Source: Chloroflexia bacterium
Lineage (GTDB): Bacteria > Chloroflexota > Chloroflexia > Thermomicrobiales > CADCWN01
DNA: 32,000 bases
Assembly: GCA_046328475.1 (NCBI GenBank)
Contig: JAXLWN010000067.1
Location: 4,263-36,262, forward strand
Reading direction: 5' to 3'
Part shown: positions 8,132 through 32,000 of the stretch, in pieces
How the letters are laid out: each line of letters starts with the position of its first letter
Position numbering within the stretch: position 1 is the first letter of the stretch
The notes under the pieces: generated by a model
What the model was told of the DNA's origin: nothing
Seen by the model: the letters and a program-made list of their open reading frames with translations, nothing else
Databases searched by the model: none
Made by a program: the position numbers and the translations under genes

Positions 8132-8251
8132 GTGCCTGCAACGCCGTCCGCGAATGAAACCGACGTGCAACGAAGGAGACGATTGCCTCCTTCTAGTGAA
8201 GCCACGCCCTCGCGCAAATTGCCGGGCGAGCGCGCAGAGAGGAGAACGCCG

Positions 8252-8860: not shown

Positions 8861-8890
8861 TCCGATACGTTGCAGCAAGGAAGGTGCCGC

Positions 8891-10306: not shown

Positions 10307-10370
10307 CCGCCCCTGCCCTGTGCTGGCAACCGCGATAGCTATGCGTCACTGACACAAAGGAGGAGTGATC

Positions 10371-11403: not shown

Positions 11404-11439
11404 CGCGGAGCAAGTATTGGTCACCGAAAGGAGAGCCAC

Positions 11440-12482: not shown

Positions 12483-12726
12483 GCCCCGGCCACGCTGCGC
12501 CCGACCATACGATGCGGCACCTCCCTGAGTCGCTCCGCTGCGCGCTGTGTCGATGCCAGTCCCGACGGCAGCACACACCCTTCGTGCCGCGCGACCGGCA
12601 TTCAGACGAGAGCATCGACCAACAAGCTAACCCACCAGCGTATCGCATGCATGGTCAGGCACGCCGTGTTGGCAGCTCATCTACCACGCAAGGAATTGAA
12701 CCGCACCACTGGTTGGACGTTGGCAG

Positions 12727-13114: not shown

Positions 13115-13798
13115 ATGCGCGTTTCCCAGTGGTTCATTGTCGCGACCGCGTTGTTCGTCACCTGCCTGATCACCGCCAATGTCATCGCCGTGAAGCTGGT
13201 CGCCATCGGCGGGCAGATCCTCCCGGCCGGTATCGTCATCTTCCCCGTCAGCTACATCCTCGGCGATGTGTTGACCGAGGTCTACGGGCTCCGGCGGGCG
13301 CGCCTGGTCATCTGGACCGGCTTCGGTTGCAACGCGCTCTTCGTCGCGGCGGCGTGGCTCGGCGGGATCCTCCCGGCGGCCGGGTTCTGGGATGGTCAGC
13401 CGGCCTACGAGCGCATCCTCGGCTTCACCCCGCGCCTGCTCGCGGCGTCGTTGGTCGCGTACCTCGTCGGCGAGTTCGCCAATGCCTATGTGCTCACCTG
13501 GCTGAAAGCGCTCACCCGGGGGCGGTGGCTCTGGACCCGGACCATCGGCTCGACGCTCGTCGGCGAGGGGCTGGACTCGCTCCTCTTCGTGGGCCTCGCC
13601 TTTGCGGGCATCCTCCCGGTGCGGACGCTCCTGATCACCGCCGCCACACAGTGGCTGATCAAGACGGGCTACGAGGCGCTGGCGACGCCGCTCACCTACC
13701 TCGCCGTCGGTTTCTTCCGGCACGCCGAGGGTCGGGCCGACGCCATGCAGCCGGTCGGGTTCTCGCCAATGCCACTCCACGCAGGTGGCGACGACTGA
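13115..13798 (+). CDS. yhhQ: Queuosine precursor (preQ0/preQ1) transporter, YhhQ family
   Basis: MRVSQWFIVATALFVTCLITANVIAVKLVAIGGQILPAGIVIFPVSYILGDVLTEVYGLRRARLVIW...; the VIFPVSYILGDVLTEVYG motif is diagnostic of the family. Adjacent to queC/D/E. Confidence 0.92.
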   Translation: MRVSQWFIVATALFVTCLITANVIAVKLVAIGGQILPAGIVIFPVSYILGDVLTEVYGLRRARLVIWTGFGCNALFVAAAWLGGILPAAGFWDGQPAYERILGFTPRLLAASLVAYLVGEFANAYVLTWLKALTRGRWLWTRTIGSTLVGEGLDSLLFVGLAFAGILPVRTLLITAATQWLIKTGYEALATPLTYLAVGFFRHAEGRADAMQPVGFSPMPLHAGGDD

Positions 13799-13831
13799 CG
13801 ATCGGCGTGCAGTAGCCAGGAGTGGTGCGAC

Positions 13832-14550
13832 ATGGGCACGGAGCAGCGACCGGCGGTCGTGCTGTTGAGCGGTGGGCTCGATTCGACGACGACGCTGGCG
13901 ATCGCCAGGAGCCAGGGGTTCGAGGTCTACGCGCTCTCCTTCCGCTACGGCCAGCGGCACGAGGCGGAATTGGCCGCAGCGGCGCGCATCGCCGCAGCCA
14001 GCAACGTCGCCGAGCATGTGATCGTGCAGTTCGACCTCGGACGCTTCGGCGGCTCCGCGCTGACGGCCGACATCGCCGTGCCGAAGGGCCGCAGCCTCGA
14101 CGAAATGGGCGTCGGTATCCCAGACCATGTGCCGCGCGGAACACGGTCTTCTCCTGGCGCTAGCCTGGGCCGAGACGCTGGGGCGAGCGATATCTTTTAT
14201 TGGTGTGAATGCGCTCGATTACTCCGGCTATCCTGATTGCCGACGAATATATCGCCGCCTACGAGCAGATGGCGAACCCGGCGACGAAAGCGGGCGTCGA
14301 GGGGACCCAGCGCCTGACGATCCACGCCCTTGATCAGCATGACGAAGGCCGAGATCATCCGCAAGGGCCTGGAACTCGGCGTCGATTACAGCCAGACGAT
14401 CACCTGCTACGACCCCACGCCCGCTGGCGTCGCCTGCGGCGAATGCGATGCTTGCCTCCTGCGCCTGAAGGGTTTTGCCGAGAATGGCCTCGCCGACCCC
14501 GCGCCCTACCGAAATGTACCAGCCGCCGCAGACGCCAGCACGCCGATGAC
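13832..14550 (+). CDS. queC: 7-cyano-7-deazaguanine (preQ0) synthase QueC, broken by frameshifts near 14130-14330
   Basis: PP-loop [35 protein letters not shown], ...[14 protein letters not shown], ...[40 protein letters not shown] (Zn cysteines). Confidence 0.92.
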
Positions 14551-14912
14551 CAGGATCACGCTGCGACGCAAGGTCGACTTCTCTGCGGCGCAATGCCGGA
14601 AATGGGTAATTTACCGCGAAGTTGTCCATGGGCACAACTATTCCGTGGAGGCATTCGTGGCGGGCGATCCTGACGCGCGCGGCATGATCAAGCCGTTCGA
14701 GGAGATCGGGTCAAACGCGACCTTCAAGGAGCTGGTCCACGATCGTGGATATGACCACCAGACGCTCAACGCCAGCCCCATTCGATGAACTGTCGCCGAC
14801 TACGGAGAATCTCGCGCTCGTGTTCCTGGAAGCTCTCCGGGCGCGGGACGACCGCTACACCAAAGTGCGCGTCTGGGAGACCGACAACAACTACGCCGAG
14901 GCCGAGGCGTGA
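14546..14912 (+). CDS. queD: 6-carboxy-5,6,7,8-tetrahydropterin synthase QueD, frameshift near 14785
   Basis: [14 protein letters not shown] ... [27 protein letters not shown] ... YDHQTLN, then in another frame [39 protein letters not shown]. Confidence 0.85.
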
Positions 14913-15657
14913 GCGCCGAGCGCGCTGGCTGGTACCAGCTCAACGAGCACTTCGACGATCCAGGGCGAGGGTGAGCACGCCGGGCGCACCGCCGTCTTCC
15001 TGCGGCTACAGGGTTGCCCTGTCGGCTGCGTGCGTGGTGCGACTCGAAGCTCACCTGGTACGCGGGCGGCGAGCGGCGGCATGACGAGCTGCTGGCGATC
15101 GTAGCGGGCTACCCCGACTGGAGTTGCTGGTCATCACCGGCGGGAGCCGCTGATCCACGACCTGATGTCGAGCGCCACCTGGCGCGCGAGACCCACCTGG
15201 AGACCTCCGGCGTTCACCTGGGTTCGGCGGGCAGCTGCGGCCCTGCTGGGTGACGCTCTCCCTGAAGGCGGTCGCAGGCTGGCGGTGGCGGACGACGTCC
15301 TGGCGAGCGCGGGCGAGTTGAAGTATGTCGATGAAGACTACGATCCCGGCGACGCTGCGTTACACCTTGCCGAATACCGACGCCTCACCGGCCGCCCCGC
15401 GCCGCCCGTGCGCCTGATGCCGGAGGGGGCACCGCCGCGCCAGGCGATGGTCGCGCGGACGCTGCGCTGCTGCGCGAGCACCCCGAGTGGCGCTTTGGCC
15501 CGCGCCTGCAATACAACTACCTGCCGTTTCGGACCTCGAAGGGGGGAACAACAAGCAGTTGAGCGCGGCGGAGGCGCGACGCCTGCGCGCTGCGCGCATC
15601 GCGCAGCGCGAGGAAGGTGCGCGACCTGCGCGGCGGAACCGGGAGGAAGCGAGCCGA
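14909..15657 (+). CDS. queE: 7-carboxy-7-deazaguanine synthase QueE (radical SAM), several frameshifts; 3' boundary approximate
   Basis: Bridging frames gives FD.TIQGEGEHAGRTAVFLRLQGCPVGC..WCDSKLTWYAGG (CxxxCxxC radical-SAM cluster), LLVITGG.P, and C-terminal VRLMPEGAPPRQ / HPEWRFGPRLQYNYLPF. Confidence 0.85.
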
Positions 15658-16467
15658 TGGTGGGCACAGTGACAATGCCGGACGTGCAGGGCCGCAGCGA
15701 TGCGCGCCGCATCCTGATCGATCAGGTCGGGGTGAGCGAGTTGCGCCACCCGGATCGTGGTGCTCGATCCGCAGCAGGGGGAGCAGCGGACGATCGCGCA
15801 ACTGCGCATGTCGGTGCGCCTGCCGCACCAGTTCAAGGGGACGCACATGAGCCGCTTCGTCGAGGTGCTGAACGAGCACCACGGCGAGGTGATGCGGACG
15901 TTCTCGGCGATCCGCGCCGATCGAGCGGCTGGCGCCGAAAAAGGCGGCGGACGAGCGCGGTTCCTATTTGCTGGTGCCACCGCGCCGTCATGGTGCGGCG
16001 GCCTTGAGGACCACGAGTGCGACTTGTCGGGCAATTGAATAACGGGCACTCCGCTGATTTGTCCTGAAGTGCGGGTGCCGGTCGCGAGTCTCTGCCCGCA
16101 GCAAGGAAATCTCCGATTACGGGGCACACAACCAGCGTGGGTATTGTGTGACTACAGCGTCCGTAGCGTGCGGGACGCCACGGGATCCCGGCGTTGATCT
16201 GGATCGAGGAGTTGGTCGAGATTGCCGGGCTCCGCACCGGTCTACCCGCTGCTGAAGCGCATGGACGAGCGGCATGTCACGATGCAGGCCTACGACAACC
16301 CGGCGTTCGTCGAGGACATCGCCCGGAATGTGGCGGCGCAACTGGCCGACGATGCCAGGGTGGCCTGGTTCCGGGTGGGTGTGGTGAACCACGAGTCCAT
16401 CCACAACCACAGCGCCTTCGCCAACGTTGAGTGGTCCCGGGAAACCGGCTACGCGACCGCCCCCTGA
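15657..16467 (+). CDS. folE2: GTP cyclohydrolase FolE2 (type IB), several frameshifts
   Basis: MPDVQGRSDARRILIDQVGVSELRHP / DPQQGEQRTIAQLRMSVRLPHQFKGTHMSRFVEVLNEHHGEVM / bridged CP..SKEISDYGAHNQRG / PVYPLLKRMDERHVTMQAYDNPAFVEDIARNVAAQLADDARVAWFRVGVVNHESIHNHSAFA. Confidence 0.92.
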
Positions 16468-16514
16468 CCAGTCCGGGGGCGGGATCCGCCTGGCCCGAGA
16501 GGAAAAGAGCATTC

Positions 16515-18450
16515 ATGGCGCTCACGCCGCAGTTCGAAGCGCACGCCCGCAGCCGTGGTCGAATGGGGACGCTGCGCCTTGTCCGCGATCAGCAATGGCT
16601 GCCGGGGCGATCGACGCCCATCCTCTACCCGGTCCTGAACCTGGTGACCGGCACCACGCCCAATGGCGGGGGCATCTGGCGCTACATCGTCAACGATCTC
16701 CTCGATCACGAGCACCAGAACTCGCCGATCCTCTCCCAGGTACTGCACTTCCTCGACTTCCACCTGTTGCCGCACATGCTCAAACGCTGGCGGGGGAAGA
16801 CGCTGCGCCAGCATTACCGCGACCGGCGTGAGCCGATCGACTTCCGCGCCCCGCTTTTCCTCGACTCGGGCGGATTTAAACTCCTCTTCAAGCCCGACCT
16901 CACCCTGGCCCAATATGGACTGCTGCGCCCAGGCGAGGAGGCGGAGAGCATTCTGCGCTTGCAAAAGGACTTCGGTGGCGACCTCGTCGCTTCGCTCGAT
17001 TACCCGCTGCCGCCGAACCTCGATCCCACCGAGGCCCGCGAGCGGATGCGCCGCAGCGAGGCGAACGCCCTGCGCGCCCTGGAGTTGCTGTCGTCGGGGG
17101 ACGAGTTCGCCGACTACGCGCCTTTGCTGTACATCGCCTGCCACGGCCTGACGGCGGACGATATCGAGGACTATGTGCGCCGCACCCTGGCGGCAATTGT
17201 CGAGCGCGGGCTCCCGACGCAGGGCATCGGCATCGCGATCGGGTCGCTCGTGCCGCTACGCAGCGCCCACAAGCTGGTCGATCTCGTCGGCATTATCCAG
17301 GGCGCGTTGCGCGGCATCCCCGAGACATTGCGCGCAACCCTCCCCATCCACGTCTTCGGGGTCAGCGGCGACCTTATCCCGCTCCTGACGTACCTGGGCG
17401 TTGATTCCTTCGACAGCAGCACCTATATCCAAGCCAGCCGCTCGCTCAAGTACTACCACCCGCGCGAGCGAGATGGTTCCGGTCCTCCAACTGGAAGACT
17501 TGCCGTGCGACTGCCGCATCTGCCGCGCGCTCGACTTCGGCAAACTCCACGACACGCTGACCGCCCATCGCGATGTCTACCGACCCAGCGAACCGAAGGG
17601 CTTCAAGAGCTATTACTACGCCCAGATCGCGCTGCACAACCTGGAGATGGAGCGGCAGGTCCTCGACCGCACGCGCAAGGCACTGGAGGCTGACAGCCTG
17701 GTCGAACTCCTCGTGGAGCATGCCGAGCAATTCCCACGCCTGCAGCCCGCCCTGCAGACGATTGCGCGGGACGACGCGATTCTCTCGCCTCGGCTCACCC
17801 GGGTGGTCTACACGACCAAGCTCTTCGGCGAACGCGCTCCTCTGCCCGGGCGAAGGACCGAGGCACGCGAGCCCGACCGCCCGACCATCTCGTTGCGCTT
17901 CACCCCCGACGACTTCAAGGTGCCGCGCGACTATCATCCACCAGCAGGCCAGGATCTCCTGCTGATCGTCCCCTGCTCGGAGACCAAGCCCTACTCCGAA
18001 TCGCGCAGCCACCAGGCGCTCATGCGGCGGTTGCGGCAGGCGCTGGATGCGCCGACGCTCGCGCGAATCCACAAAATCTCCCTGTCAGGGCTGTACGGGC
18101 CGGTGCCGCAGGAGCACGAGTCGGACGAGAACGTCTTGCACTACAACTTCCTGCTCTCGCCGATGGATCACGCGCAGATTGAAGAGGATGCGAAGCGTCT
18201 CACCGCCTATCTCAAACAGCACGGCAAACACTATCAGGCGATCTTCGGCTACGCGACGAGTAAGGCCTATCGCACGGTCCTCCAGCGCGCCGGGCTGCAA
18301 CTCTACCCGCGCAAACCCGCCAGCCAGATGCCGACCGAGTTCTACCGCAACGCCAATCTCGACGAACTGGTCCAGGCGATTGCCGAGAGCGCCGGGTGCG
18401 ACGATCGCGCCGAGTTCGGGACCCCGGAGTTGCGCGGCATGGTGTCGTAA
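16515..18450 (+). CDS. dpdA: DpdA-like DNA-guanine transglycosylase (TGT superfamily, TgtA5-type) with C-terminal DUF5591-like region; frameshift near 17468
   Basis: TGT motifs APLFLDSGGFKLLF (cf. TGT DSGGFQ), GIGIAIGSLVP, HVFGVSGDLIPLLTYLGVDSFDSSTY (nucleophilic Asp region), Zn motif CDCRIC ... ALHN (Cys codons 17506/17512/17521, His 17635). C-terminus LLLIVPCSETKPYSESRSH ... ISLSGLYGPVPQEHE. Directly follows folE2. Confidence 0.85.
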
Positions 18451-18474
18451 CGTTGCGTCGCGCCCGGGGGCAGG

Positions 18475-19260
18475 ATGCCGCTGCTGCTCGACCGGTTGAG
18501 CGTCTATGGGGAGATGCTGGCGATTGCCAGCGAGGTGCTGGTCGAGCGGGAAGTGCTCCCGCTCGACCAGTTTCGTGCCCTGCTCTTTCCCCGCCGCGAG
18601 AACGAGACGCTGGAGCGCGAACTGCTCGCCGACCTGGGCGACCTGGGCATCGCGGCGGTTGACGAGCACTCCCTGCGTCGCGCGCTCGCGCCCGATCGCG
18701 CCACCGGCGCTGCGCTGCGCCTGCATGTCCTCGCCACGCTGCGCGCGTTCGAGGATGAGAACGCGGTGATCCTCGATCTCTACCGCTTCCTGCTCGAGGA
18801 TGGCTCGTTCGGGCGGCGCGTCCTCGATCGCGACGCGATTTGGCCGCGCTTTAACCGGCATTGCGCGGCGATCGGGATCGGTGGGCAATCGGTGATCCTC
18901 AACAGCCTCAAGATGGCCTCCTGGCTGCGGCTGATGACGTTCGTTGGCCTGGTCCGGCCAGAGCGCAGCAACACCTTCATCCTCGCCCCGAAGCTCGACC
19001 TCCTCCGCGCCATGCTCCGCTCGATCGTTGGCCTGGGTGGCGACAACCTGAGCAGCCGTCGTCGCGCGCATCGAGGCGCTTCGCCCGCTCACGCAGCGCT
19101 CGGGCTCGCTCCACCCCGGGTATGCCGACGCCCTGGCGCCTCGAACGGCGGCGAGATCGGGCTTACCACGATCGGAGATGCCGGCGGGGGTGCTGCTGCA
19201 CGACCGCGGCAACTCCATCGCCCCCGCGACTAGCGCGAACGCTCCGGGGAGGGCTGAGCG
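18475..19260 (+). CDS. DpdG-like protein of a dpd cluster (function unknown); 3' end uncertain because of frameshift
   Basis: ORF MPLLLDRLSVYGEMLAIASEVLVEREVLPLDQFRALLFPRRENETLERELLADLGDLGIAAVDEH... (~260 aa). Assigned mainly by position between dpdA and an ATPase gene. Confidence 0.45.
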
Positions 19261-19267
19261 GCACGCC

Positions 19268-22139
19268 ATGTCTGCTGATGACGCGCGCCTGGTGCGGCGG
19301 TACTTCACGACCGAGGCGAGCACGAAGGCAAGCCGCGAGGACTCTCCTGCGGCTGCACCTGCCGATGGAGCGCATCCGCGTGCTCGATGCCAAGCCGATG
19401 GTTTTCCGCCCGCACGATATGTGGGAAGAGGGAGGCAGCGCCTACACCGGCGAGGCGGGGCTGCTGGCGGCGTTGCAGGCATCCATCCTCGCCGATCCGA
19501 ACCGGATATTCGTGGTGGTCGGCGAGCCGGGGTCGGGCAAGTCCCACCTGGCGCGCTGATCGAGCACTCGCTCGACGACGCCTCTCCCATTTCCCGATCC
19601 ACATCCTGCGCCACATCGACACCCTCGAAGCGGTCGTCAGGCGGCTGGAGGAGCGGACCGGCATCGCGACCGGTGCCAGGCCATCGTCGCACCTGCTCAC
19701 CACGCCCGCCGACAAGCTCGTGCGCTACCTGCTCGCCTCGATCGAGATGGAGTTGGGAAGCGACACCCCGGAAGGCGACCGCGACCCAGGGCTCGCGCAG
19801 CTGGTCGAGTCCGCCGCGTTCCGCGCGCTCGTGCAGGAGCAAGTCGGCCGCTATCAAGCCGAGCGCAAGCGCACGGACACCGGGTTGAAGACCCGGGAGC
19901 TTCTCGAACTGGGCGCGGCCGATTTCGCGGCACTGCGCGAGCAGATCGGGAGAAGAGCACTCTTGCGCAGGCGCAGGGGCGGTTCGAGCGCCTCGCCGCC
20001 GCCTTCGGGCTGGCCGTCCGTCGGCTGGCCAACCTCGATCGTCTCGATCTCAAGCAGCTCCTCGCTGCGATTTCCGAGCGTTGCATTGCGCTGGGCGAGC
20101 CCCGTGCTCATCCTGGAGGATGTTCCTCGACATGCTCCACGACGACCTGCTGATGGTTCCCTGCTCGACGAGTCGGCCGGGCACTTCGACGCGCTCGTCT
20201 GCTGGACGACCGGCTTCGAGAACTACATGCAGACCTACCAGGAGAGCAGCGCTACACCGCGCGCCTCTCGCTCACCGACGACCAGAACGAAGCCTACAGT
20301 CTCCAGGATGGCCGCTGCGTCGAACTCGTGCGCCGCTATCTGGATGCGGTCCGGCTCGACATCCCGGGCGGCTGCCCGGTCTGCGCGCGTGCCGGGCCGA
20401 TCTTCGACCACCTCTACCCGTTCAACGCCCCCTTCGTGCAGCGCCTCTACGACAACCTCACCACGCCCGGGCGAGAGCGGCGACGTACGCCCCGCCACCT
20501 CCTTGATCGGGCGGTGAAGGCGTACCTCGAGCTTGCCGAGCGGGATGGGGCGTTCCCGCCGCTCAAGCAACCGGACGCCGTGCAGGACATCTATTACGAC
20601 ACCGCCCTCTACCGTTATCGCGAGGAGTACGCCGCGTTCGTGGCCCTCGTCAGCTGGTACGGCGAGCGGCAGGACGGCAGCCTGCGCCTGCCCCATTCGC
20701 TGGCCCGTCACCTCGGGGTCGCGATACCGGAGGAGTTTGAGGAGGACGACCTCATCGAGATCCACCTCGCGCGCGAGGCACCCGAGCAGGACGTGGTGCG
20801 GGCGGCAACCCTGGAAGTAGATCTACAGAATCGCTTCAAATCCCTCCGGCTCGAACTACAGTCGTGGTACAACCACGGCACCCCGCTCGACCACTACCTC
20901 GATCTCCAGCGCGGCGCGTACAAGACGCTGCAGTTCTTCAGGCACCGCCTGCCGCTCACCTTTGCCCACCCGGCCGGCCCGGTCGGACTCGGGCAGCCGC
21001 TCACCTACGGGCGCAGCACAGGCGAGGTCAACATCTTCATCCGCAGCACACGCATGAAGCCGCAGCGCTCGCTGCAACTCGAAATCGGCCCCGGCGCGGC
21101 GGGCCTCGACGACGAGCAGAATTACCTCCTGCTCGAAACCCTGCTGGCGCTCCAGGTCTTCGGCAGCTATCCCGAGGACGCCGACCTTGCCCTGCTCGGG
21201 CACTGGGCCGACGCGGCCCACACGGCCTATCGCGAGCGGATCGAGCGGCGGCTCACCGAGGGCCTCGGCATGGATCTGCCGACCTTCCTCCTGCTCGCCA
21301 AGTTCCTGCTTCTCAACCGCTATCTTGCCGTCGGCCTGCCGCCGGATCCGCTGACCCTGCTTACGCCACTCGATGTCGAAATCGTGGCCGATGGCGAAGA
21401 TCCTGCACCGGTCGATTTTTCGCCGCTCCGCGCGCTTGCCGAAGTGATCGACGGCGCGCTGGTGGCGCGCTTCTTCATCGCGCGCGATTTCCTCGATTAT
21501 CCGCGACTGGCCGCCGCAATCGCTCGGCTCGACGTACCGGCGCTGGTGGAGCGGGCCGCCGCCATCGTGTTGACCCGCGTAGACGAAGACTTCCGCTTTG
21601 CAGGCGGGATACGCCTCCGCGACCTCGCGCGAGCGGTGAAGGGTGTGTGCGCCGCGCTGGGTGCCCTCGATCCGGGCGAACTCTACCGCCGCATCGCGGC
21701 GGAACTCGCGGAGGTGCAGGCCGCAACCGTGACCGCGCCGACGGCGATCGTCGAACGGATGGAGCGACTCGGCGATCGGCTCGGGCTCTACTCGCTGCAC
21801 GAACTCTACGACAGCCCGCGCTGGCGGCAGTGGCAGGCGGCGGTGTCAGACCTGCCCGATGGCGAGGCGACGGATGCCTCGGAGTTGCGCAAGGCGATTG
21901 CGTCGCTCCTCCAGCCGCCCGCCGACCCGTACGGCTATTTCGCCTGGCTCGGTCGGATCCGGCAGATTCAGCGCCGCCCCACCTATCGCACGCTGCGGGC
22001 GGCGCTGGACCTGCTGGCGCGACTGGAACCCGAGCTGAACAGCGCCGAAGACACAGGGATGGGTGAAATGCTCCGTGATGTCCTTGGGCGACGCGACGCG
22101 CTGCTGCGCGCGAGCAAGCCGCTACGGAGGGCGCGATGA
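19268..22139 (+). CDS. DpdH-like large P-loop ATPase (~950 aa), frameshifts near 19290-20280
   Basis: FVVVGEPGSGKSHLAR (Walker A, codons 19521-19544), LPMERIRVLDAKPMVFRPHDMWEEGGSAYTGEAGLLAAL, HFPIHILRHIDTLEAVVRRLEERTGI, long 603-aa continuation to TGA 22139. DpdH assignment rests on size, P-loop and context. Confidence 0.55.
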
Positions 22140-22495
22140 ACCTTGTCGAGCGGATCGACGCGACGATCGCGGCGATCGATCGCCTGCACGAGCAGCGGCA
22201 CCGGCCGCACATCGCCGCCTACTGTCGCCGGATCGGCCGGTTGCTCGACGCCGCAACCGCGGCCCTTGACCACCTCACCGCATCGTCGGCTGAGTCGGGC
22301 AACCAGTCCGCTGAAGCGCACTATCACGAACTCGGGCGCTGGGCGAGCCGGGTCGCGGCGCAGATCGACGAAGCCGCCCTCGTCCGGTGCGACCCGAGGA
22401 TCGAGCAATCGCTCGGCGACTTGGTGATGATGCTGCGCGCGGCGGTGCGGGCGCAGCAGCGGCAGGCACCGCACGCGGAATCATCCCCCGGGTGA
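22136..22495 (+). CDS. Small uncharacterised protein (119 aa), translationally coupled (ATGA) to the upstream ATPase gene
   Basis: ORF starts at ATG overlapping the previous TGA. MNLVERIDATIAAIDRLHEQRHRPHIAAYCRRIGRLLDAATAALDHL..., predicted all-helical. Confidence 0.6.
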   Translation: MNLVERIDATIAAIDRLHEQRHRPHIAAYCRRIGRLLDAATAALDHLTASSAESGNQSAEAHYHELGRWASRVAAQIDEAALVRCDPRIEQSLGDLVMMLRAAVRAQQRQAPHAESSPG

Positions 22496-22527
22496 GTCGA
22501 CGCCAACGGGCCAGTCGGCACCGCCTT

Positions 22528-24810: not shown

Positions 24811-24820
24811 GATCCCCTCC

Positions 24821-27568
24821 TCACGGTTCGAGCCCCAGGCAATCCGCGCGCACCGGGCAGAAATGGCAGTGATCGCCCGGGTTCTTCGGGTAGTCGCCAG
24901 CCTCGATCTCGTGAATACGGCTTGCGAGTTCTGCGCTGAACGCCTCGTACTCCTGCCGCGCCTCCTCGCCCAGCGCATCCTGCCGCCCGCGCAGCGCGTC
25001 GTGCCGGTATGCCAGGCGTATCCCGCGATCCCACCACCGCCAGGCGTGATAGCGCACGCCATAGAGGCTAACGTTCCCAAGCTGGATTGTTGGCGGGTCG
25101 TTGTCACGCGGCATCGACGCCGGCAGTAGCCATTCCTCGAACCGGCGATCCTCAAGGAAGGGATAGGTGATGTTGCCCCTGCGGATGGCGTGCCGCACGC
25201 TCGCATCGACAGCGATCGCGCGCTGACCCTCCACGATCGTGTATCCGACCTGGCCGGCTGGCCCGACGCTGATTTGATACTCACCGCCCCACTCTGCCAG
25301 GTAGGCAAGCTCGCTCGCGACTCGGCGCGCCACGGTCTACCACTCCACGTCGCGCAATCCCGGAAACGCGGCACGCGCCTGTTCTTCCGTCGCGCCCCGC
25401 ACATCCTGGAGCATCGCCAGGACTTCGTCCCGCCCTCTGGCCCACAGGCCGGTCTCCGCCAGGTGTTGCATGATGAGGCCGAGCCAGCGGCCCTGGGCCA
25501 GGGGCCGGATCTGGAACCGCTGGCGATACTGGCGAGCGCGACGATCGAGGCCCTCCATCTTGTAGCGGAAAGGGCACAGGCTGAAGTGCGCGATTTCTGC
25601 CAGGCTGTATGCTCCGCGACGTGCCTGCGCCAGCGAGGCGCGTTGCCCCACAGCCCCGGCTGGGAGGGCGGCTGGCGCGGGCGGCGGTGCGATCCTCAGA
25701 CCGAGCCGGGCCGCCGTTTCCTGCAGGTAGGGGGACGGCCCGCAGGCGCGGTCCTGGTCCAGCTGTGCGTAGGAAAGATAGAGGCTTTCCTGCGCCGCGC
25801 GCACCACCGCCAGGGAGAGATAGCGCTCCTGATCCTGATGCTCCTCGAAGCGATCCTCCCAGAATGGCCAGGGCTCGGCGTACCCGCGCGGCACCCGCCG
25901 GTCGTCGACGCCGATGAAGAGGACGTGCCGCTTGGTATAGCCGTCGATCCCCTCGGGGGTCGTCACCCAGACGCGGCCGGGAATGTCGGGCAGGGGCTCC
26001 TCCTCATCCGCCGGGCGGTCATATTCGCGCACGAGGCTGTTCAGGACGTCGCCGAACTCGTCGGGCGACATCGGCAAGGAGGTCTGCACCCGCAATTGCT
26101 CCAGGCTCTCCCTGATCCGCTCGACGATCTGGCGCTCATCGGCGAAGAGTTGCTCCGGCACCAGTCGGCTCAACTCATCGAGCAGGCGCTCGACGTGCCC
26201 CCCGATCGAGTGCGTGCCGCTGGCGAAGAGGCGGTCGCACAGGGTGCGCACTTGCTGCAACGCACGCTCCCAGAGATCGATCGACCGCTCCTCCACCGAG
26301 GCGGCGGCGTGCCGCGAATTGGTCGGCAAGGCCCGGCGGAGGGTGCGGAGATCGCCGAGCGTGCGCCGCCAGTCGGCCTCGGACAGACAGCGGGCGAAGA
26401 ACTGCGCCTTGACCGCGTCGAACTGATCCACGGTCGTCTGCAGCAGGGCACCGAGCCAGCCCGAGGCGACGATCGCCTCGAACGCTTCCGCCCCCATCCG
26501 CAACGCACCTTCGCGGCGGATTTCATAGAGCGTCAGGACGAACCGGCCCAATGGCGTCAGTAGCAGCAGGCGGGGCGGGATGCTCAGCGTCACCGGCAGC
26601 TGCTGTAGCCGGGCTTCCTCCTCCAGCAAAGGCTGCGCGGCGGCGACATCGCGCACGACGATGGCGATATCGCGGGGGTCCGCCCCTTGCTCCAGCAGCG
26701 CGCGCACCCGCGCGATGCAGGCGGCCACCTCCTGGTGCCGGTGCGTGAACGCGGCCAAGACCACCCGGTCGTCGGCGATCGGCACGGGTGTCGCCGCATC
26801 TGCGAAGAGGACTCCTTGCAGCGTGGCGAGGCTGCCACTCCCGGCCGGGGACGTCTGCACGGCGCGCGTCGCCCCGACCGCGTAGGAGGCGTAGGTGCGG
26901 CGCATGATCGCGAACCCCTCCCCCTGCGCGTCGTTGCGGGCGTAGACGAGATGCACGATGGCATTCCGCGCGCGGCAGACGTCGATGAAGTGCCGCTGGA
27001 GCGTGGTCAGGAACGTGAAACCTTCCACGATGACATGGGCGGTGGGACGGTAGGTCAGGTCGAGAAAATCGCGCGCGGCATCCTCGAACGGTCGCCGACC
27101 GTGCGCCGCCTGTTCGGCGCGGTACTCCCGCTGCAATGCCGCGAGCACATCGCCAATCCCCGGATTGAGCAAACGATTCCGCCATTGTTCGGAGATGCCG
27201 CGCGCGAAGTCTGCCCCTTGCTCGGCGAGGTCCGCGAGCGCGTCGCGCCAGGCGAAGACATCCTGGCGGAGCAGGCGCGAGAGCATTGGATCGGCCGCAG
27301 CACGGCGGATAGCGCGCTGGAGGGCGATTCGCTCCTCGGCGCGGGTCAGCGGGTGCTCGGTCATCAGGTGGCGCAGCACCTTGTGGAAGACCAGTTGCGG
27401 CTGGTCGTCCGCGAGTTGGTGCGGCGGTGCCAGTTCGGCCCGCTGTCGCTCCTGCGCGGTCGTCGCCACGATCAAGGTATATTCCTGCCCGATCAGGCCG
27501 AGTTCCGCCAGGAGGGATCGCGGCTCAAGCGGGGCACCTGTGTAGCAGAGTGTCCTCACCGACCCCAT
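24821..27568 (-). CDS. PD-(D/E)XK nuclease superfamily / AddB-RexB-like protein with Fe-S-type cysteines, one frameshift near 25335
   Basis: ATG at 27568. YSLAEIAHFSLCPFRYKMEGL ... (frameshift) ... GDHCHFCPVRADCLGLEP, a C-(n)-CxxC-(5)-C pattern as in AddB/Cas4. Also RVWVTTPEGIDGYTKRHVLFIGVDDRRVPRGYAEPWPFWED (AddB-like inactive helicase region). No Walker A at the N-terminus. Confidence 0.8.
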
Positions 27569-27644
27569 CTCGATCCCCCCGCTTCGCCCGCTTGCGCTCT
27601 CGCCATGCTTCCCGATGCCTTTCGCAGCGCACATGCGCACCCAA

Positions 27645-29072
27645 CTACTCGTCAGATTCCCCCGTACGCTCGCGATAGAACTCCTCAACCGCGCGGATCA
27701 GGCTCGTCGATCCGGCCCCGGCCGCTTCGCAGACCTCCAGTGCGTCGCCGCGCGCGTCGAAACCCGAGCGCGCGGCCTGGAGCGCGTAGAAGACTTCGTG
27801 GCTCTCCTGGTCCGGAACGTGGATGACCAGATCGACCGGGACAGTACCATTTGCCTTTTGGAGCGACACCCGCTGGCGCATGAGCGCGCCGTCGAACCGC
27901 TCATCGAACGGCTCAACCTCGCGCCGACCATCCTTTGGCAAGCCGTAGTCGCGTGCCAGCACGTCGAAGGCTCGCCTCCTGGTCGCGGCGGTGCCGCCGA
28001 TGAGGCAGATCGTTTGGTCGCGCAAGTCGATGCCGGGTTCGGGCAGGGCGACCGCCCTGCCCTGGGCCACGTCCGGGATCAGCGCCCGCAAGCGTTCGGG
28101 ATCGAGGCTGTCCAGCAGCAGCACAGCCTGGCGCAGGTGGCGCGGCGACTGCCGCCGCAGCTCCTGGTGCAAGAATTCGGCGCAGACACCGGCGGCGCGT
28201 TCCCGCACGGGTGCGGAGGCCATTTCGAACTGTTCGAGCAGGGCCAGCCGATCGCCATCGTCGCGACAAAGACGCAGGCAGTCGTCGAAGTAGTGGCCGA
28301 GCAGTGGCGCAAACTCGTCGGCACGCGCGTGGAACCGAGCAGCGCGGATCGCCAGCGCGGGGAGCTCATCTTCGGGCGCACCTTCCGGGGCGAGGTCGAG
28401 CGTCCAGCGCGCCAGTTCGCACACCCTGGCGGTTGGGCGTTGGCGGTCCACCGCGCCGAGATAGCGGCACATGACCTGGTAGGCCCGCTCGATCGCCTGC
28501 GGTAGCTCGGACTGATAGAGGCGTTCGGATAGCTGCACGGCAAGGCCATCGTCCTGCGGATTGGCGCGGGCGATGGCGTCGAATACCACGATCGCCTCCT
28601 CGTCCGACAGCCTGGCGATACCGTCTGCGTGCAGCCGACGCGCGATCGGGAGGTCGTCGGGATCGGCGCGCAGGATCGCCAGCAGATTCGGGCGCGCTGC
28701 GTCGCGAAGATTGGCATCTCCCGTGTCCCAACGCCCAAGCGCCACGGCCCGGACGATTTCCGGCCGCGCGAGGATTTCCGGCGCTTCGCCCGCGACACGG
28801 TCGGCGATCGCCGCCGCCGCCGCGTAGTCTTCGCCTCGGGCGAGCGCGACGAGCAGGCGCTCGAAGAGTCGGCGGCGATCGGCGGGAGCGAGCGCATCAC
28901 CCGCTTCGTCCAGCAGTCGATGGTCGAGGGCAGCGCTCTCGGCATCGCGCCCTAATCCTGCCAGCGCCTCGGCTCGCAGGTAGTCGAGCTGGATCCTCTC
29001 GGCGTGCTGAACCTCCGGCGGCAGCAATCGAGTTGCCGCAAGGCGTCGTAGCGCCGGGCAACAGCTCATCAC
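27645..29072 (-). CDS. TPR-like alpha-helical repeat protein with C-terminal DUF2325-like domain (475 aa)
   Basis: Helical repeats through ~350 aa, then TICLIGGTAATRRRAFDVLARDYG...VPVDLVIHVPDQESHEVFYALQAARSGFDARGDALEVCEAAGAGSTSLIRAVEEFY. Confidence 0.55.
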   Translation of the reverse strand: MMSCCPALRRLAATRLLPPEVQHAERIQLDYLRAEALAGLGRDAESAALDHRLLDEAGDALAPADRRRLFERLLVALARGEDYAAAAAIADRVAGEAPEILARPEIVRAVALGRWDTGDANLRDAARPNLLAILRADPDDLPIARRLHADGIARLSDEEAIVVFDAIARANPQDDGLAVQLSERLYQSELPQAIERAYQVMCRYLGAVDRQRPTARVCELARWTLDLAPEGAPEDELPALAIRAARFHARADEFAPLLGHYFDDCLRLCRDDGDRLALLEQFEMASAPVRERAAGVCAEFLHQELRRQSPRHLRQAVLLLDSLDPERLRALIPDVAQGRAVALPEPGIDLRDQTICLIGGTAATRRRAFDVLARDYGLPKDGRREVEPFDERFDGALMRQRVSLQKANGTVPVDLVIHVPDQESHEVFYALQAARSGFDARGDALEVCEAAGAGSTSLIRAVEEFYRERTGESDE

Positions 29073-30178
29073 GCACCGAATCGAGGGCGAGCGAGGGGAT
29101 CGCCACTGCGACGGGCGGGAGCAACCGGGGCCGTGAGGAGCGCGCGGCGCTCCTGAAGCTGGGCCAGTTCGTCCGGCTCCACGAAGGGGAGCAGCGCGTC
29201 GATGAGCGACACGAGCGACTCGGCGGTTCCCTGGGGCGGATCCTGCGCGATCTGGAGCAAACCTGCGGTGACCAGCTGATCCTTGAGGCGAACCCGCCGG
29301 CGTTGCTCGTCGGCGGATCCGAGCGACAGGGCATCCGGCTGGAGCAGGCGCGTGAGTGCGCGCAGCCCCTCCACGCGCCGCCCTTGCGCCCAGTAGCCAC
29401 GCGCGAGCAATTCCAACCGCGCGACATCCTGCGCCGTCGCCGCCAACGCGGGCGGTTCGTCGCCAAGCAAGGCGACCGCCTCATCCGGGTTGCCGAGGGC
29501 GAGCAATGCCTCGGCGAGTTGGAACGCGCTCTCGGCATCGGCGAGGGCGGCGGCATACTCTCGCGCGAGCGCGATTGCGTCCTCCCAATGGCGTTGCGCC
29601 ACGGCGAGTCGCAGCAGGAATGGTGCGAGCGCAGCGGGAGCGATTTCCTCGCGCTGATAGGTTGCCAGGAGCCGCTGCGCGCCGCGAAAGTCGCCGCTGC
29701 TGATCCGCTGCGTCAGGAGGTTGGCATCGAACGCCATCCTGCGCTCGGCCCGCCGCTGCGGGGGATAGGCGCTGAATACCTGGGCCACATCGCGCTGCCA
29801 GGCCTGGATGTCGGCGCGCCACACGGGAATGCCTTGAGGCGCGGGGAGACCACCCTGCCGGGTTGGCACGGGCGACGCGGATGACGCGGGCGGCGCAGGC
29901 GAGGCGGCTGGCCGCAGCTCGTCCAGTTCCTGCCGGACGATCGCCAGAATGTGGTCGCGGTCGGCGGGTGTGGCGGGGCCGCGCCCGATGACGTCGAGGT
30001 AGTTCCCATAGCGATACGACCGTCCGTTGTGCCACGGGTTCGTGAAATGTCCACCCGAGATGCCCGCCGCCCGCAGGGCGCGACGTATTCGCTGCAAGTC
30101 GCCGAAGTCGACATCCAGGCAGAGGACCGCCTTGCCCCGGGAGTACCGCACGTCCGGCGCAGCCTGGTGTGAACTCAC
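29069..30178 (-). CDS. Uncharacterised protein with a small N-terminal domain and TPR-like repeats (369 aa)
   Basis: GTG start at 30178. KAVLCLDVDFGDLQRIRRALRAAGISGGHFTNPWHNGRSYRYGNYLDVIG..., Pro/Ala linker, then helical repeats (AIALAREYAAALADAESAFQLAEALLALGNPDEAVALL). Overlaps the next gene by 4 nt. Confidence 0.6.
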   Translation of the reverse strand: MSSHQAAPDVRYSRGKAVLCLDVDFGDLQRIRRALRAAGISGGHFTNPWHNGRSYRYGNYLDVIGRGPATPADRDHILAIVRQELDELRPAASPAPPASSASPVPTRQGGLPAPQGIPVWRADIQAWQRDVAQVFSAYPPQRRAERRMAFDANLLTQRISSGDFRGAQRLLATYQREEIAPAALAPFLLRLAVAQRHWEDAIALAREYAAALADAESAFQLAEALLALGNPDEAVALLGDEPPALAATAQDVARLELLARGYWAQGRRVEGLRALTRLLQPDALSLGSADEQRRRVRLKDQLVTAGLLQIAQDPPQGTAESLVSLIDALLPFVEPDELAQLQERRALLTAPVAPARRSGDPLARPRFGA

Positions 30179-30182
30179 GCGC

Positions 30183-30455
30183 TCATCCCTCCACCCCGGT
30201 CAACTCGGGGGCATCGATCGGTCGCGCGCCCGGTGCGTCGGGTGCGAAGAGTTGCTCGATGCTGGCGCGCAGCTCGGTCAGGCGCTGGGGATCGGTCACC
30301 AGCGCCAGCGTCCCATCGGGCGCGATTTCCAGCGCCGCGCCCGCGCCGAGATAGACCGCCGTCGCGGGCGGCGCGTCGAGCAGCCGCGCGTCGAAGCGAT
30401 CGCCGTGGGCGGCGCGCAGCGCCTGTAGCTCAGCCAACTGCTCCGGTGTGACCAT
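30183..30455 (-). CDS. Small uncharacterised protein (90 aa)
   Basis: ORF MVTPEQLAELQALRAAHGDRFDARLLDAPPATAVYLGAGAALEIAPDGTLALVTDPQRLTELRASIEQLFAPDAPGARPIDAPELTGVEG. Tightly packed between neighbouring genes on the same strand. Confidence 0.5.
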   Translation of the reverse strand: MVTPEQLAELQALRAAHGDRFDARLLDAPPATAVYLGAGAALEIAPDGTLALVTDPQRLTELRASIEQLFAPDAPGARPIDAPELTGVEG

Positions 30456-32000
30456 CTCCGGCCCGGCGGCGAGCCGCTACGGGTCGCCCCAGTCGCCCCA
30501 GCGCCGTGGCCAGGTCGTGCAGCGTGTAGGGCTGCAACGGCCGGGGCTGCGGCTGATCGGCAGGCGAGTTGCGGCACCCGCTCCGCGCCATACCCCTCGT
30601 CGCGCTCGTCGTCGCAGCCCACGGGGCCACCGAATGCCGCCCCGGCGACGAGCAGCGGCCCACGCTCGCCGAATCGCGCCAGGATCAGCTCGCGCACGAC
30701 GAAGAATTCCCAGCGCGCGGCATCCCGGCGACGGGTCAGCGGATCTGCCCCTTGCGCCCCTGCCCGCACCCGGATCGGCTCGTCCCAGGGCTCCAGTTCG
30801 AGTTCATACTGTGGCCCCTCCCCATCGAGCGCGACCGTGACCATCCGCGAGGCGACCGGCCGGACCTGCCGATCCATCAAGGAGAGCAGCAGCTGGCCGA
30901 GGAGGGGTGCCTGCGCCGGGCGATAGCGGATCCGCGCGCGGCGCTGTTGATCGAGCGACCGCAGGGCCGCGTTGCGGGCCAGGGTCGGGCGCGGATAATC
31001 GTCCAGCGAGACGATCGCCTCGCCGAGGGCGTCGCGGAGATAGGCGCGCAGCAGCAGGCGACTGAGCAGCAGCGGGCTGCGCCGTGGATCGAGCAGCGAG
31101 CAACTCGAGTCCTGCAAGCACTGGATACAGACATCGCCGCAACTGGCAAGCAGACGCTGGGCGATCTGCCTGCCGAGTGTGCCAACCGCGCCCGTGGCCG
31201 TATCGTCGTCGTCGGCATCGTCATCGGGACCGGCGTATCCGCTGTTTTCGGCCTGGCGCGCCGGCACCGCCCGGCGTGCCGTGGCACCGTGGTCGCGAAG
31301 GATCGTCCGGTAGAGGCGCTGGAGGGGTGTCGGATCGCCCCCGCCGTCGCCTGCGGCATCGACTTCCGACTCAACCTGCCGGGCGATAGCATAGCGCGCC
31401 TCGGTCAGCGTCGGCTCGCGGCCAAGTTCGTGCGCCAGCGCCTCCCAGCGGATCACGTTGATCTCCTTATAGAGCTGCCAGGAGGAGATTTCGCCGCCCG
31501 CCTTGAGCGCGATCGGCTCGGCGAAGAGGCGGGTCAGGAAGCGGAAATGCGCCTCGGTCAGCACGAAGCCGTGGCGCTCGCGGAAAGCGTCGGTGAGCTC
31601 GCGGATCAACTGATCGGCATCCGCACCGTCGAAGTTGAATGTCGCCTCGCGGATACGCCGGGCCAGTTCCGCCAATTCATCGTCCGGCAAGCGGAGCAAG
31701 GCCCGCCCGAACTGCTCGGCGGCGTGGACCTCGCACTCGGTTGCCTGCCGTTCGAAGACACGCCAGAAGAGTTGCGGTCGATCGCGGAACTCGCGCTGCA
31801 CAGCGTGCATGATCCCGATCCCGCCCGTGCCGAGTTCGTAGACGGTGATGCGCCCCGTCGCCGAGCCGACGTCCATGCGCAAATCGACCCAGCTCGCGAG
31901 CCGCGAGAGGGTTTCCACGCCGCCCACGCTCTCGCAGGTCTGCTTGAGGGCGTGTTCGAGGCTGTGGACGAACAGATCGTCGAGATAGTCGTCGAACCGG
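30430..32000 (-). CDS. C-terminal part of a large DUF1998-like / DpdJ-like helicase-associated protein; 5' end outside window; frameshifted near its 3' end
   Basis: TVYELGTGGIGIMHAV plus Cys cluster LLASCGDVCIQCLQDSSCSLLDPRRSPLLLSRLLL, reminiscent of the DUF1998 GGaG and C..C..C pattern. DpdJ assignment is contextual. Confidence 0.5.

Follow-up and report, generated by a model that had tools for sequence, protein, structure and literature searches.

A 32,000-nucleotide (nt) stretch of DNA (the window) from contig JAXLWN010000067.1 of a Thermomicrobiales (Chloroflexota) metagenome-assembled genome (MAG) was analyzed. Positions 13115 to 32000 hold two convergent gene arms, with stop codons at 22495 and 22528 and 32 nt between them (Table 1). 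In the plus arm, genes for the synthesis and transport of 7-cyano-7-deazaguanine (preQ0), in the order yhhQ-queC-queD-queE-folE2, are followed on the same strand by a gene that fuses a tRNA-guanine transglycosylase (TGT) domain to the ArcS C1 catalytic core (DUF5591), and then by DpdG- and DpdH-like genes. The minus arm encodes an AddB-like protein, a UvrD-like helicase, a DpdJ-like helicase, and possibly a DpdD-like protein. Judged by comparison with homologues, the region would probably be one divergent Dpd-family 7-deazaguanine DNA modification-restriction island of undescribed composition. A preliminary description had placed a Dpd-related island with two convergent arms here. Both points held. 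Intact orthologues of two plus-arm proteins matched DpdG and DpdH, the right-edge open reading frame (ORF) matched DpdJ, and the AddB-like/UvrD-like pair adjoined 7-deazaguanine or Dpd genes in 14 of 18 informative contexts in other genomes.

The G+C content of the window is 67%, and many spurious ORFs are therefore present. Reading frames were chosen from stop-free segments by third-position G+C (GC3) and then confirmed via homology. Nearly every island gene, yhhQ excepted, is frameshifted. Once the correct frames are followed the catalytic motifs are all intact, and the frameshifts are most likely assembly errors rather than gene decay.

Table 1. Features of the two convergent arms (window coordinates; aa, amino acids; LLR, log-likelihood ratio; TPR, tetratricopeptide repeat)
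Feature	Position	Strand	Evidence and state
yhhQ, Vut_1 family queuosine-precursor (preQ0) transporter	13115..13798	+	Pfam Vut_1 E 5e-51; intact
queC, preQ0 synthase	13832..14520	+	~4-5 frameshifts; traced through three frames
queD, PTPS/6-carboxytetrahydropterin (CPH4) synthase	14546..14912	+	Pfam PTPS E 1e-5; frameshifted, continues in another frame; L085 QueD matches
queE, radical-SAM 7-carboxy-7-deazaguanine (CDG) synthase	14920..15660	+	several frameshifts; boundaries approximate
folE2, GTP cyclohydrolase IB	15666..16467	+	frameshifted; Pfam GCHY-1 model positions 26-73 and 197-260; tblastn with L085 FolE2
TGT-ArcS (C1/DUF5591) fusion	16515..18450	+	644 aa after one frameshift repair near 17465-17475; Pfam TGT and DUF5591
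DpdG-like protein, ~260 aa	18475..19250	+	frameshift near 19030; 41% identity to L001 260-aa orthologue (tblastn)
DpdH-like (BrxC-like) P-loop ATPase, ~960 aa	19259..22139	+	three frameshifts; segments 44-75% identical to L001 958-aa orthologue
Small conserved protein, 119 aa, DpdI position	22136..22495	+	L001 114-aa protein, phmmer E 3e-11
UvrD-like superfamily 1 (SF1) helicase, ~755 aa	22528..24812	-	Pfam UvrD-helicase and UvrD_C; at least 4 frameshifts
AddB-fold protein with C-terminal Cys-cluster (PD-(D/E)XK/Cas4-like) domain, ~915 aa	24821..27568	-	Pfam PDDEXK_1, C-terminal piece only
475-aa protein, possibly DpdD-like (DUF2325-like C terminus)	27645..29072	-	codon LLR weakly favors minus strand
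376-aa protein with weak TPR-like signal	29069..30199	-	Pfam TPR-type E 1e-3 to 7e-3, all sub-threshold; codon LLR 0.10 per codon
97-aa ORF	30183..30476	-	codon LLR 0.16 per codon; no family match
DpdJ-like (YprA-family) helicase, C-terminal part	30296..32000	-	gene start lies right of window edge

A TGT-ArcS fusion in the position of DpdA

The preliminary description had assigned a TGT-superfamily gene of DpdA type directly after the preQ0 genes. The place and the superfamily were confirmed (Pfam TGT), but the type was not, and a single TGT-DUF5591 fusion was found instead. Two adjacent ORFs match TgtA model positions 75 to 257 and 267 to 350, respectively, and their frames join at ~17470, just 5' of the CxCxxC zinc motif, as direct reading of the junction showed. 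Among 5.8 billion proteins searched, at least 413 full-length homologues of 610 to 690 aa have both domains. Since the model positions continue past the frameshift and full-length homologues carry both domains, the fusion is a single gene. In NCBIfam the window protein scored 53.3 bits against TgtA (TIGR00432; intact orthologue, 93.5; cut-off, 350), 75.2 bits against ArcS (NF040592; 84.5; 440), and 19.5 bits against DpdA (NF041059; 10.7; 200). PADLOC, its Dpd models included, gave no match for the fusion or its intact orthologue. The best matches among solved structures were arcTGT (1iq8/1j2b) and AF0587, and no solved DpdA chain matched at an E value of ≤0.01. Profile-profile alignment (hhalign) with a bDpdA-like protein reached 98% probability, which indicates the same superfamily only.

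Residues expected of both activities are invariant in a 30-sequence family alignment: (i) the aspartates D117 (DSGG) and D297 (GVDSFD) of the TGT domain; (ii) the zinc site CxCxxC...H (C331/C333/C336/H374); and (iii) the ArcS-C1 motif P486-C487...K491-P492-Y493...S496...H499. The corresponding window motif, PCSETKPYSESRSH, matches exactly PC-X3-KPY-X2-S-X2-H, the signature of the ArcS catalytic core C1 (PMC10516641). An AlphaFold2 (AF2) model of the fusion (pLDDT [predicted local distance difference test], 81.7) ends after the C1-like domain. Neither a PUA or other RNA-binding domain nor the ArcS C2 domain was found by Pfam, which reports TGT and DUF5591 only, or in the AF2 model. Homology of DUF5591 to DpdC (DUF6884) is at best possible; the motifs align, but the hhalign probability was just 11%.

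The complete GTP-to-preQ0 gene set claimed by the preliminary description is present, QueC, PTPS/QueD, and FolE2 being recognized by Pfam and QueE from its frames and homologues. The gene order given there (folE2-queD-queE-queC) is not the actual one, and position 13115 is the start of yhhQ. The Pfam QueC model was matched at positions 2 to 81 and 156 to 209 in different frames, and tblastn with QueC of L001 (loci of other genomes are designated by L numbers) gave 51% identity. In queE the motif IQGEGEHAGRTAVFLRLQGCPVGC and the residues after it were followed from frame to frame, and homologues match, whereas single-frame fragments gave no Pfam match. Thus, FolE2, QueD, QueE, and QueC, assigned by homology, would convert GTP to preQ0, and YhhQ, whose role is preQ0 transport (PMC12235509), could also import it. 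Upstream of yhhQ, Rfam matched no RNA element, whether a preQ1 riboswitch or any other.

DpdG- and DpdH-like genes downstream of the fusion

The closest intact orthologue of the fusion (L001, 61% identity) is followed by genes for 260-, 958-, and 114-aa proteins, with Vut_1 and QueC alongside. These three proteins map to window positions 18484 to 19029, 19280 to 22046 (in four frame segments), and 22139 to 22435. The DpdG- and DpdH-like genes that the preliminary description had seen downstream were borne out by these intact orthologues. The 260-aa protein matched NCBIfam DpdG with an E value of 5.6e-6 (25.9 bits; cut-off, 80), and the 958-aa protein matched DpdH with an E value of 5.6e-21 (74.8 bits; cut-off, 450) as well as nine PADLOC DpdH models. 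The window DpdH-like fragment itself matched DpdH at 6.5e-4, and its Walker A motif, GEPGSGKS, is intact; the tail of the DpdG-like ORF is apparently out of frame. Because these scores are far under the equivalog cut-offs, both genes are best described, from their sequences, as remote relatives of dpdG and dpdH. DpdH-I was equated with BrxC in a 2025 preprint (bioRxiv 10.1101/2025.09.15.676423). The small protein that follows is 58% identical to the first gene product of L085 and matched PADLOC DpdI only marginally (E value of 0.047); the order G, H, small gene is the canonical Dpd order.

A HATPase_c_3 protein of ~640 aa is encoded 3' of the cassette in L001 (16659 to 18596) and 3' of the AddB-like/UvrD-like pair in L085 (17546 to 19453), the two sharing 44% identity. 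This protein, which is not in the window, may be a further accessory component.

An AddB-like/UvrD-like pair in the minus arm

Pfam and Foldseek confirmed the AddB-like/UvrD-like pair of the minus strand, which the preliminary description had singled out as setting the island apart from canonical Dpd. The UvrD-like protein has 33 to 50% identity to five orthologues (tblastn), and its helicase motifs are intact. It has helicase domains only, the nuclease domain being absent, as in the ~750-aa proteins of homologous loci, and it scored 110 bits against NCBIfam AddA (cut-off, 708). The AddB-like protein has 31 to 48% identity to its homologues over the full length (tblastn) and no match to NCBIfam AddB. 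Its family is small, with 44 homologues in 5.8 billion proteins, and is spread over Variovorax, Paenibacillus, Nodularia, SAR324, Deinococcus, and metagenomes; the homologues are ~930 aa long and end in a PD-(D/E)XK or NERD domain. A metagenome scan with the family alignment gave only eight contigs, all short, and a search for a phage or viral origin of the gene gave no matches. In a family model (pLDDT, 87.6), the top Foldseek matches were the AddB chains 4cej_B and 3u44_B (E value of 2e-23; TM score, 0.59 to 0.60), followed by UvrD, AdnA, and RecC. The motifs LCPxRYK and HCxxCPxxxxCxG are conserved, with one plus three Cys kept. A UvrD-like gene (~750 aa) follows the AddB-like gene in every locus whose downstream DNA is visible. 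The possibility that the minus arm is a housekeeping AddAB was ruled out, given just 44 AddB-like homologues that are tied to Dpd/Dnd modules. Within Dpd, this pair is undescribed in the literature searched, a search that was not exhaustive.

DpdJ-like and possibly DpdD-like proteins at the right edge

A codon model trained on confident genes placed the far right-hand ORFs on the minus strand. The preliminary description had two TPR-like proteins here. Only one was found, with sub-threshold matches. The rightmost ORF is the C-terminal part of a DpdJ-like protein. This part matched NCBIfam DpdJ at model positions 1140 to 1349 of 1482 (E value of 9.6e-9; 33.5 bits; cut-off, 800) and PADLOC DpdJ with an E value of 3.6e-11; hhalign with dpdJ of pART37 (Paenibacillus sp. 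37) aligned the same region, but with a probability of 24%. Its 567 visible residues include a four-Cys cluster, CGDVCIQCLQDSSC, and have one homologue (52% identical). The tail of this ORF is apparently out of frame, and the 97-aa ORF downstream is possibly its frameshifted C-terminal continuation. For the 475-aa protein, a search of 1.84 billion representatives found just three relatives, and over 53 columns its C terminus aligned with the DUF2325-like end of DpdD in a three-sequence profile (hhalign; 91% probability; E value of 1e-6). The few relatives of the 475- and 567-aa proteins sit on contigs of 1.6 to 2.1 kb. Pairwise phmmer of these far genes against DpdJ and DpdD proteins detected nothing, kinship being detected only by curated hidden Markov models (HMMs) and profile-profile comparison.

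The two arms as one modular system

The contexts of the pair in other genomes bear on whether the two arms belong together. Outside the 14 contexts with 7-deazaguanine or Dpd genes, the pair adjoined DndBCDE in one and neither in three. The deazaguanine-linked loci are varied: the pair occurs with DpdJ homologues, a phospholipase D-type (PLD) nuclease, and DpdD (L082 and L083); with Vut_1, a DUF6884-TGT fusion, QueC, SNF2 and DEAD helicases, DpdG, and a DpdH-like protein (L084); with a 114-aa-type gene, QueD, QueC, QueE, FolE2, and a split BrxC_BrxD (L085); with QueC, QueE, QueD, FolE2, and DpdC-, DpdB-, and DpdA-like genes (L090); with queC, queD, and yhhQ (a Deinococcus plasmid); and with deazaguanine or Dpd genes likewise in L094, L095, L097, and L099. 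In L089 the pair is convergent on FolE2-QueD-QueE-QueC, as in the window, and in L087, which also encodes a ParB_N protein, it lies directly after a TGT-DUF5591 fusion, adjacent and co-directional. On pART37, genes named dpdF and dpdJ by the NCBI annotation pipeline (PGAP) are followed by DpdD and then by the pair; the order dpdJ, small gene, DpdD, AddB-like, UvrD-like parallels the window minus arm.

One restriction operon holds both G/H/I and J/D in canonical Dpd (PMC12235509). Because G/H/I and J/D are here split over the two arms, neither arm looks complete alone. From these sequence comparisons, both arms would quite probably make up one modular system. The alternative is that the plus arm is a self-contained modification/sensor cassette and the minus arm an independent effector with another mark or none. 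The arms, being convergent, are not one transcript, the L001 and L062 cassettes have the fusion, DpdG, and DpdH without the pair, minus-arm proteins were found within 10 kb in none of 81 fusion loci in reference genomes, and the pair also occurs with DndBCDE (L086) or with a NACHT protein only (L088). Yet no modification gene lies in the minus arm, each arm seems incomplete by the standard of the canonical operon, the deazaguanine link is frequent, and a convergent (L089) and a co-directional (L087) arrangement are both found elsewhere; we therefore consider two separate systems a real but unlikely alternative. The preliminary description had made its reading depend on the minus arm being kept beside the writer gene in related genomes. 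What stood is the association of the pair with deazaguanine genes, by which the arms belong together; what did not is its presence beside the closest fusion orthologues, and the link between the arms is therefore facultative and modular.

In the Dnd-type locus (L086; Logan contig of SRR21361471, 4662 to 20140), the pair comes after a complete DndB-DndC-DndD-DndE phosphorothioation set, and genes for an HNH protein and a PIF1-type helicase of 1317 aa lie beyond it. This arrangement suggests that the pair is a portable effector, serving DNA marks of more than one kind.

The fusion family in other genomes

Defense-type genes recur beside the fusion in other genomes. DpdJ homologues adjoin it in nine loci, including that of the cultured Thermogemmatispora carboxidivorans PM5 (L054); DpdG/H-like genes accompany it in L001 and L062, and ParB_N proteins in L087 and L078. 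In 11 cyanobacterial loci the fusion is followed by a GmrSD_N (DUF262) protein and then a double-HEPN protein, and in 16 Poribacteria loci an N6_N4 DNA methylase (~333 aa) is encoded directly upstream. The haloarchaeal plasmid island L091 (Haladaptatus sp. YSMS36; NZ_CP119784.1, 1 to 20688) carries two copies of the fusion. The family is patchy in its taxonomic spread, with copies on haloarchaeal plasmids, and no phage or viral homologues were found. A bacterial TGT-ArcS fusion is undescribed in the literature searched, again not exhaustively.

It could be argued that the fusion is a bacterial tRNA enzyme of arcTGT/ArcS type that makes an archaeosine-like base in tRNA, with a housekeeping preQ0 operon and coincidental defense neighbors. 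Its top HMM and solved-structure matches are TgtA, ArcS, 1iq8, and AF0587, its homologues are annotated in databases as tRNA-guanine transglycosylase, many Poribacteria loci have metabolic neighbors, and there are two paralogues per genome. On the other hand, the scores are far under the cut-offs (TgtA, 53 to 94 versus 350 bits; ArcS, 75 to 85 versus 440 bits), the PUA domain is absent, and the fusion is found repeatedly, across phyla and domains, beside DpdJ, DpdG/H, ParB_N, GmrSD_N/HEPN, a DNA methylase, or the pair; patchy spread and plasmid copies are both typical of accessory genes. A tRNA enzyme is thus very unlikely. In the preliminary description, grouping of the protein with tRNA-specific Tgt was to count against a role in DNA. 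Such a grouping was found in part, at the level of nearest HMMs and structures; the protein is nonetheless far under those cut-offs too, has no PUA, and sits in DNA-defense contexts.

Several further features of the family were noted. The cyanobacterial three-gene set (including L002 of Allocoleopsis franciscana PCC 7113, L005, L007, L013, L027, L031, L052, L056, L057, and L059) often has an HTH/DUF7662 regulator upstream, and its partner module differs from that of the window. The Poribacteria methylase loci (L008, L009, L019, L023, L036, L046, L064, L065, L071, L073, and others) often include a 205-aa protein, and in several Poribacteria genomes (e.g., OZ244587, OZ244950, and OZ252032) the two fusion paralogues lie at distant sites. 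Also present in L091 are a PLD nuclease, DUF6884, a short TGT, two large ATPases, and two DEAD/DEAH helicases, likewise large; the island looks like BRIGADE, a type for which a 2025 preprint is the only description. Fusions of reverse order, with N-terminal DUF6884 (DpdC type) and C-terminal TGT (DpdA type), are encoded in L084 (296 to 2329) and L094 (7 to 2242), the latter directly adjoining the AddB-like gene. From these sequences, base-exchange and nitrile-modifying activities appear to have been fused independently more than once.

A proposed modification-restriction system

Homology shows that the island encodes a preQ0 supply, a TGT domain and an ArcS-C1 domain in which the active site and the motif, respectively, are intact, a DpdH-like ATPase of P-loop type, and an SF1 helicase together with its partner of AddB fold. 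From these parts a working scheme can be drawn. Writing would be carried out by one bifunctional fusion standing in for DpdA, DpdB, and DpdC. Its TGT domain, in which the two catalytic aspartates and the zinc site are kept, would put preQ0 in the place of guanine, with DNA and not tRNA as the substrate. DNA is proposed in view of the context, the absent PUA, and the precedent of phage DpdA2 and ArcS2 (C1 only), which together generate archaeosine in DNA (dG+) (PMC10516641). By amine addition, the ArcS-C1 domain would then convert the nitrile to an amidine that could be dG+ or, as for ArcS without RaSEA, a preQ0-lysine adduct. ArcS takes the preQ0 mononucleotide as a substrate, so the tRNA shape is dispensable (PMC11298593). 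ArcS of T. kodakarensis transfers lysine, and the radical-SAM protein RaSEA is required to complete G+ (PMC11298593). Because no RaSEA-like gene is present within the window, dG+ and the lysine adduct are both possible. With ArcS and DpdA2 of phage nt-1, dPreQ0 (the preQ0 deoxynucleoside) fell from 926 to 0 while dG+ rose only to 4 per million nucleotides (PMC10516641, Table 3). The preQ0 is then mostly unaccounted for, as might be expected if it were held in an intermediate that was not measured (a lysine adduct, for instance); that interpretation is ours and not a claim of those authors.

As family membership and synteny suggest, the sensing of unmodified DNA would fall to the DpdG-like protein and the DpdH-like ATPase, to the small protein in the DpdI position, and to the DpdJ-like helicase and the possibly DpdD-like protein. 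The AddB-fold Cys-cluster protein and the UvrD-like motor would degrade such DNA as an AddAB-like effector complex, which may replace, or supplement, the PLD nuclease DpdK and the DpdE/F helicases.

Several points weigh against reading the region as one Dpd-family island. The Dpd-like assignments are all remote and far under curated cut-offs, some on short stretches, and the TGT domain is nearer to tRNA enzymes (TgtA, 53 to 94 bits) than to DpdA (11 to 20 bits). Canonical DpdA needs DpdB, and a DpdB-type ATPase is absent from the window ORFs scanned. The invariant D..(D/E)xK triad is not seen in the AddB-like alignment, so its nuclease activity is putative. Minus-arm proteins are missing near the fusion in the 81 reference loci, and the closest orthologous cassettes, L001 and L062, lack the pair. 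Apart from the methylase, neighbors of the fusion in Poribacteria are mostly metabolic or housekeeping genes. The density of lesions is uneven, which leaves room for real decay. Finally, the activities of the fusion, the pair, and the organism's system are predictions from comparison.

Relation to known systems

Canonical Dpd (dpdA-K) is represented by Salmonella Montevideo and Kineococcus radiotolerans (Thiaville 2016 and Gedara 2023, as cited in PMC12235509 and PMC10164549). Like it, the island is clustered with preQ0 synthesis genes and YhhQ and has a TGT-superfamily enzyme as the presumed DNA writer. It also shares, as remote homologues, DpdG, DpdH, and DpdJ, with DpdD and DpdI as possible additions, and the general plan by which a modification module is joined to a restriction module of several proteins. 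Unlike it, the island has no DpdA equivalog, the TGT-ArcS-C1 fusion taking the place of DpdA/B/C. No scanned window ORF matched DpdB (DndB/ParB_N) or DpdC (DUF6884), and SNF2 DpdE, DpdF, and PLD DpdK were not matched among window ORFs up to 32000 (Pfam, NCBIfam, and PADLOC). It differs further in carrying the AddB-like/UvrD-like pair, which is outside the A-K set, and in its expected base, an amidine (dG+ or the lysine adduct) instead of dPreQ0 or dADG (2'-deoxy-7-amido-7-deazaguanosine).

DpdA2 and ArcS2 of Vibrio phage nt-1, which were shown to yield dG+ in plasmid DNA (PMC10516641), likewise combine a transglycosylase with an ArcS-C1 domain bearing PC-X3-KPY-X2-S-X2-H. In the phage, however, these are two separate anti-restriction proteins, whereas here a single fused chromosomal protein lies in a restriction-type context, and its TGT half is arcTGT-like rather than DpdA2-like. 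With archaeal TgtA/ArcS the fusion shares the TIM barrel of the TGT domain, zinc site included, and the catalytic motif of ArcS C1; in contrast to them it is under both cut-offs, has neither C2 nor PUA, joins an apparently active TGT directly to C1, and is bacterial and patchy, in defense-island contexts.

BRIGADE systems are haloarchaeal Dpd/ARMADA hybrids, reported only from halophilic archaea and defined by ARMADA-like YprA helicases and PLD or PD-(D/E)xK nucleases (bioRxiv 10.1101/2025.09.15.676423). Shared features are a Dpd-like set, a partial deazaguanine cluster, DpdG, DpdH-I/BrxC, and YprA-family helicases, and the fusion has haloarchaeal homologues within such islands. The window differs in that it is bacterial, a PLD nuclease is not seen, and the pair is present; it has a DpdJ-like fragment, in which YprA is visible as 567 C-terminal residues only, and a PD-(D/E)xK-type protein. 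The pair, for its part, resembles AddAB, AdnAB, and RecBCD in its AddB fold, its C-terminal Cys-cluster nuclease-type domain, and its translational coupling to a UvrD-family motor. It departs from them in being rare, in lacking an NCBIfam AddB/AddA equivalog match, in having a motor without a nuclease domain, and in being tied to DNA-modification modules (deazaguanine and, once, phosphorothioate).

To our knowledge, Dpd is the only known cellular system with a 7-deazaguanine self-mark, and archaeosine (dG+) in DNA has so far been reported from phages only. The present comparison suggests that the writer is wholly replaceable by an archaeal-type TGT fused to an ArcS core, which would predict a different DNA base in bacteria; that a DpdG/H/J/D-like core recombines with alternative effectors; and that DNA-modification modules have a specific partner in a rare AddAB-like pair. 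In its most far-reaching form, the proposal would be that an amidine 7-deazaguanine (dG+ or a new preQ0-lysine adduct) serves a cellular organism as the mark on its own chromosome and is written by one TGT-ArcS protein without a DpdB-type ATPase, that the AddAB-like pair is a portable effector for deazaguanine and phosphorothioate systems, and that a large unrecognized class of DNA hypermodification exists in Poribacteria, cyanobacteria, Chloroflexota, and haloarchaea. We consider this combination possible but doubtful. If true, DNA hypermodification would reach large, ecologically important groups, such as sponge-symbiont Poribacteria and cyanobacteria, in which the fusion is abundant. Cultured carriers include Thermogemmatispora carboxidivorans PM5, Allocoleopsis franciscana PCC 7113, and strains of Nostoc, Paenibacillus, and Variovorax.

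Frameshifts and the flanking region

The lesions are distributed unevenly, with at least 10 in queC-folE2 and none in yhhQ; queC alone has ~4 to 5 frame changes, compared with 3 in the DpdH-like gene and at least 4 in the UvrD-like gene. The AddB-like gene has an in-frame TAG at 25337 to 25339 (minus strand), where the closest homologue has Tyr (TAC/TAT). This TAG is a substitution, the other lesions being indels. Outside the island, a FAD_binding_3 monooxygenase (3681 to 4514/4525 to 4938) and a Methyltransf_2 O-methyltransferase (11598 to 12125/11995 to 12525) are split too, and clean ORFs are absent altogether at ~4.9 to 7.5 kb, which points to assembly-wide indel error in the MAG.

If instead the frameshifts and the nonsense codon were real, the system would be a decaying relic, nonfunctional in this organism. 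This would agree with the number of lesions (20 or more over ~14 kb) and their concentration in queC-folE2, the DpdH-like gene, and the UvrD-like gene, with the TAG of the AddB-like gene, with a depositor's annotation broken at the same sites, and with indels that are not obviously at long homopolymers. Against this, in-frame conservation and the catalytic motifs are all intact, and a spectrum of many indels and about one stop resembles consensus error. Because genes outside the island are split alike and the motifs are intact in frame, the lesions are read mainly as assembly error, and a relic is quite unlikely.

tRNA genes were looked for as borders of the island, and none was found. Upstream, positions 8132 to 12525 encode an isochorismatase, a pyridoxal phosphate (PLP)-dependent decarboxylase, a luciferase-like monooxygenase, and the O-methyltransferase. 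With small-molecule enzymes just upstream of a complete, clustered preQ0 pathway and transporter, the region could be taken for the biosynthetic cluster of a 7-deazapurine natural product (toyocamycin- or huimycin-like). However, the gene after the preQ0 genes encodes a polynucleotide base-exchange enzyme with a zinc site rather than a phosphoribosyltransferase or glycosyltransferase, and the neighbors are helicases, ATPases, and an AddB-like protein; such a cluster is highly improbable. The upstream enzymes are not kept near the fusion in other loci, and they look like a separate metabolic cluster, parted from the island by a noncoding gap at ~12.8 to 13.1 kb.

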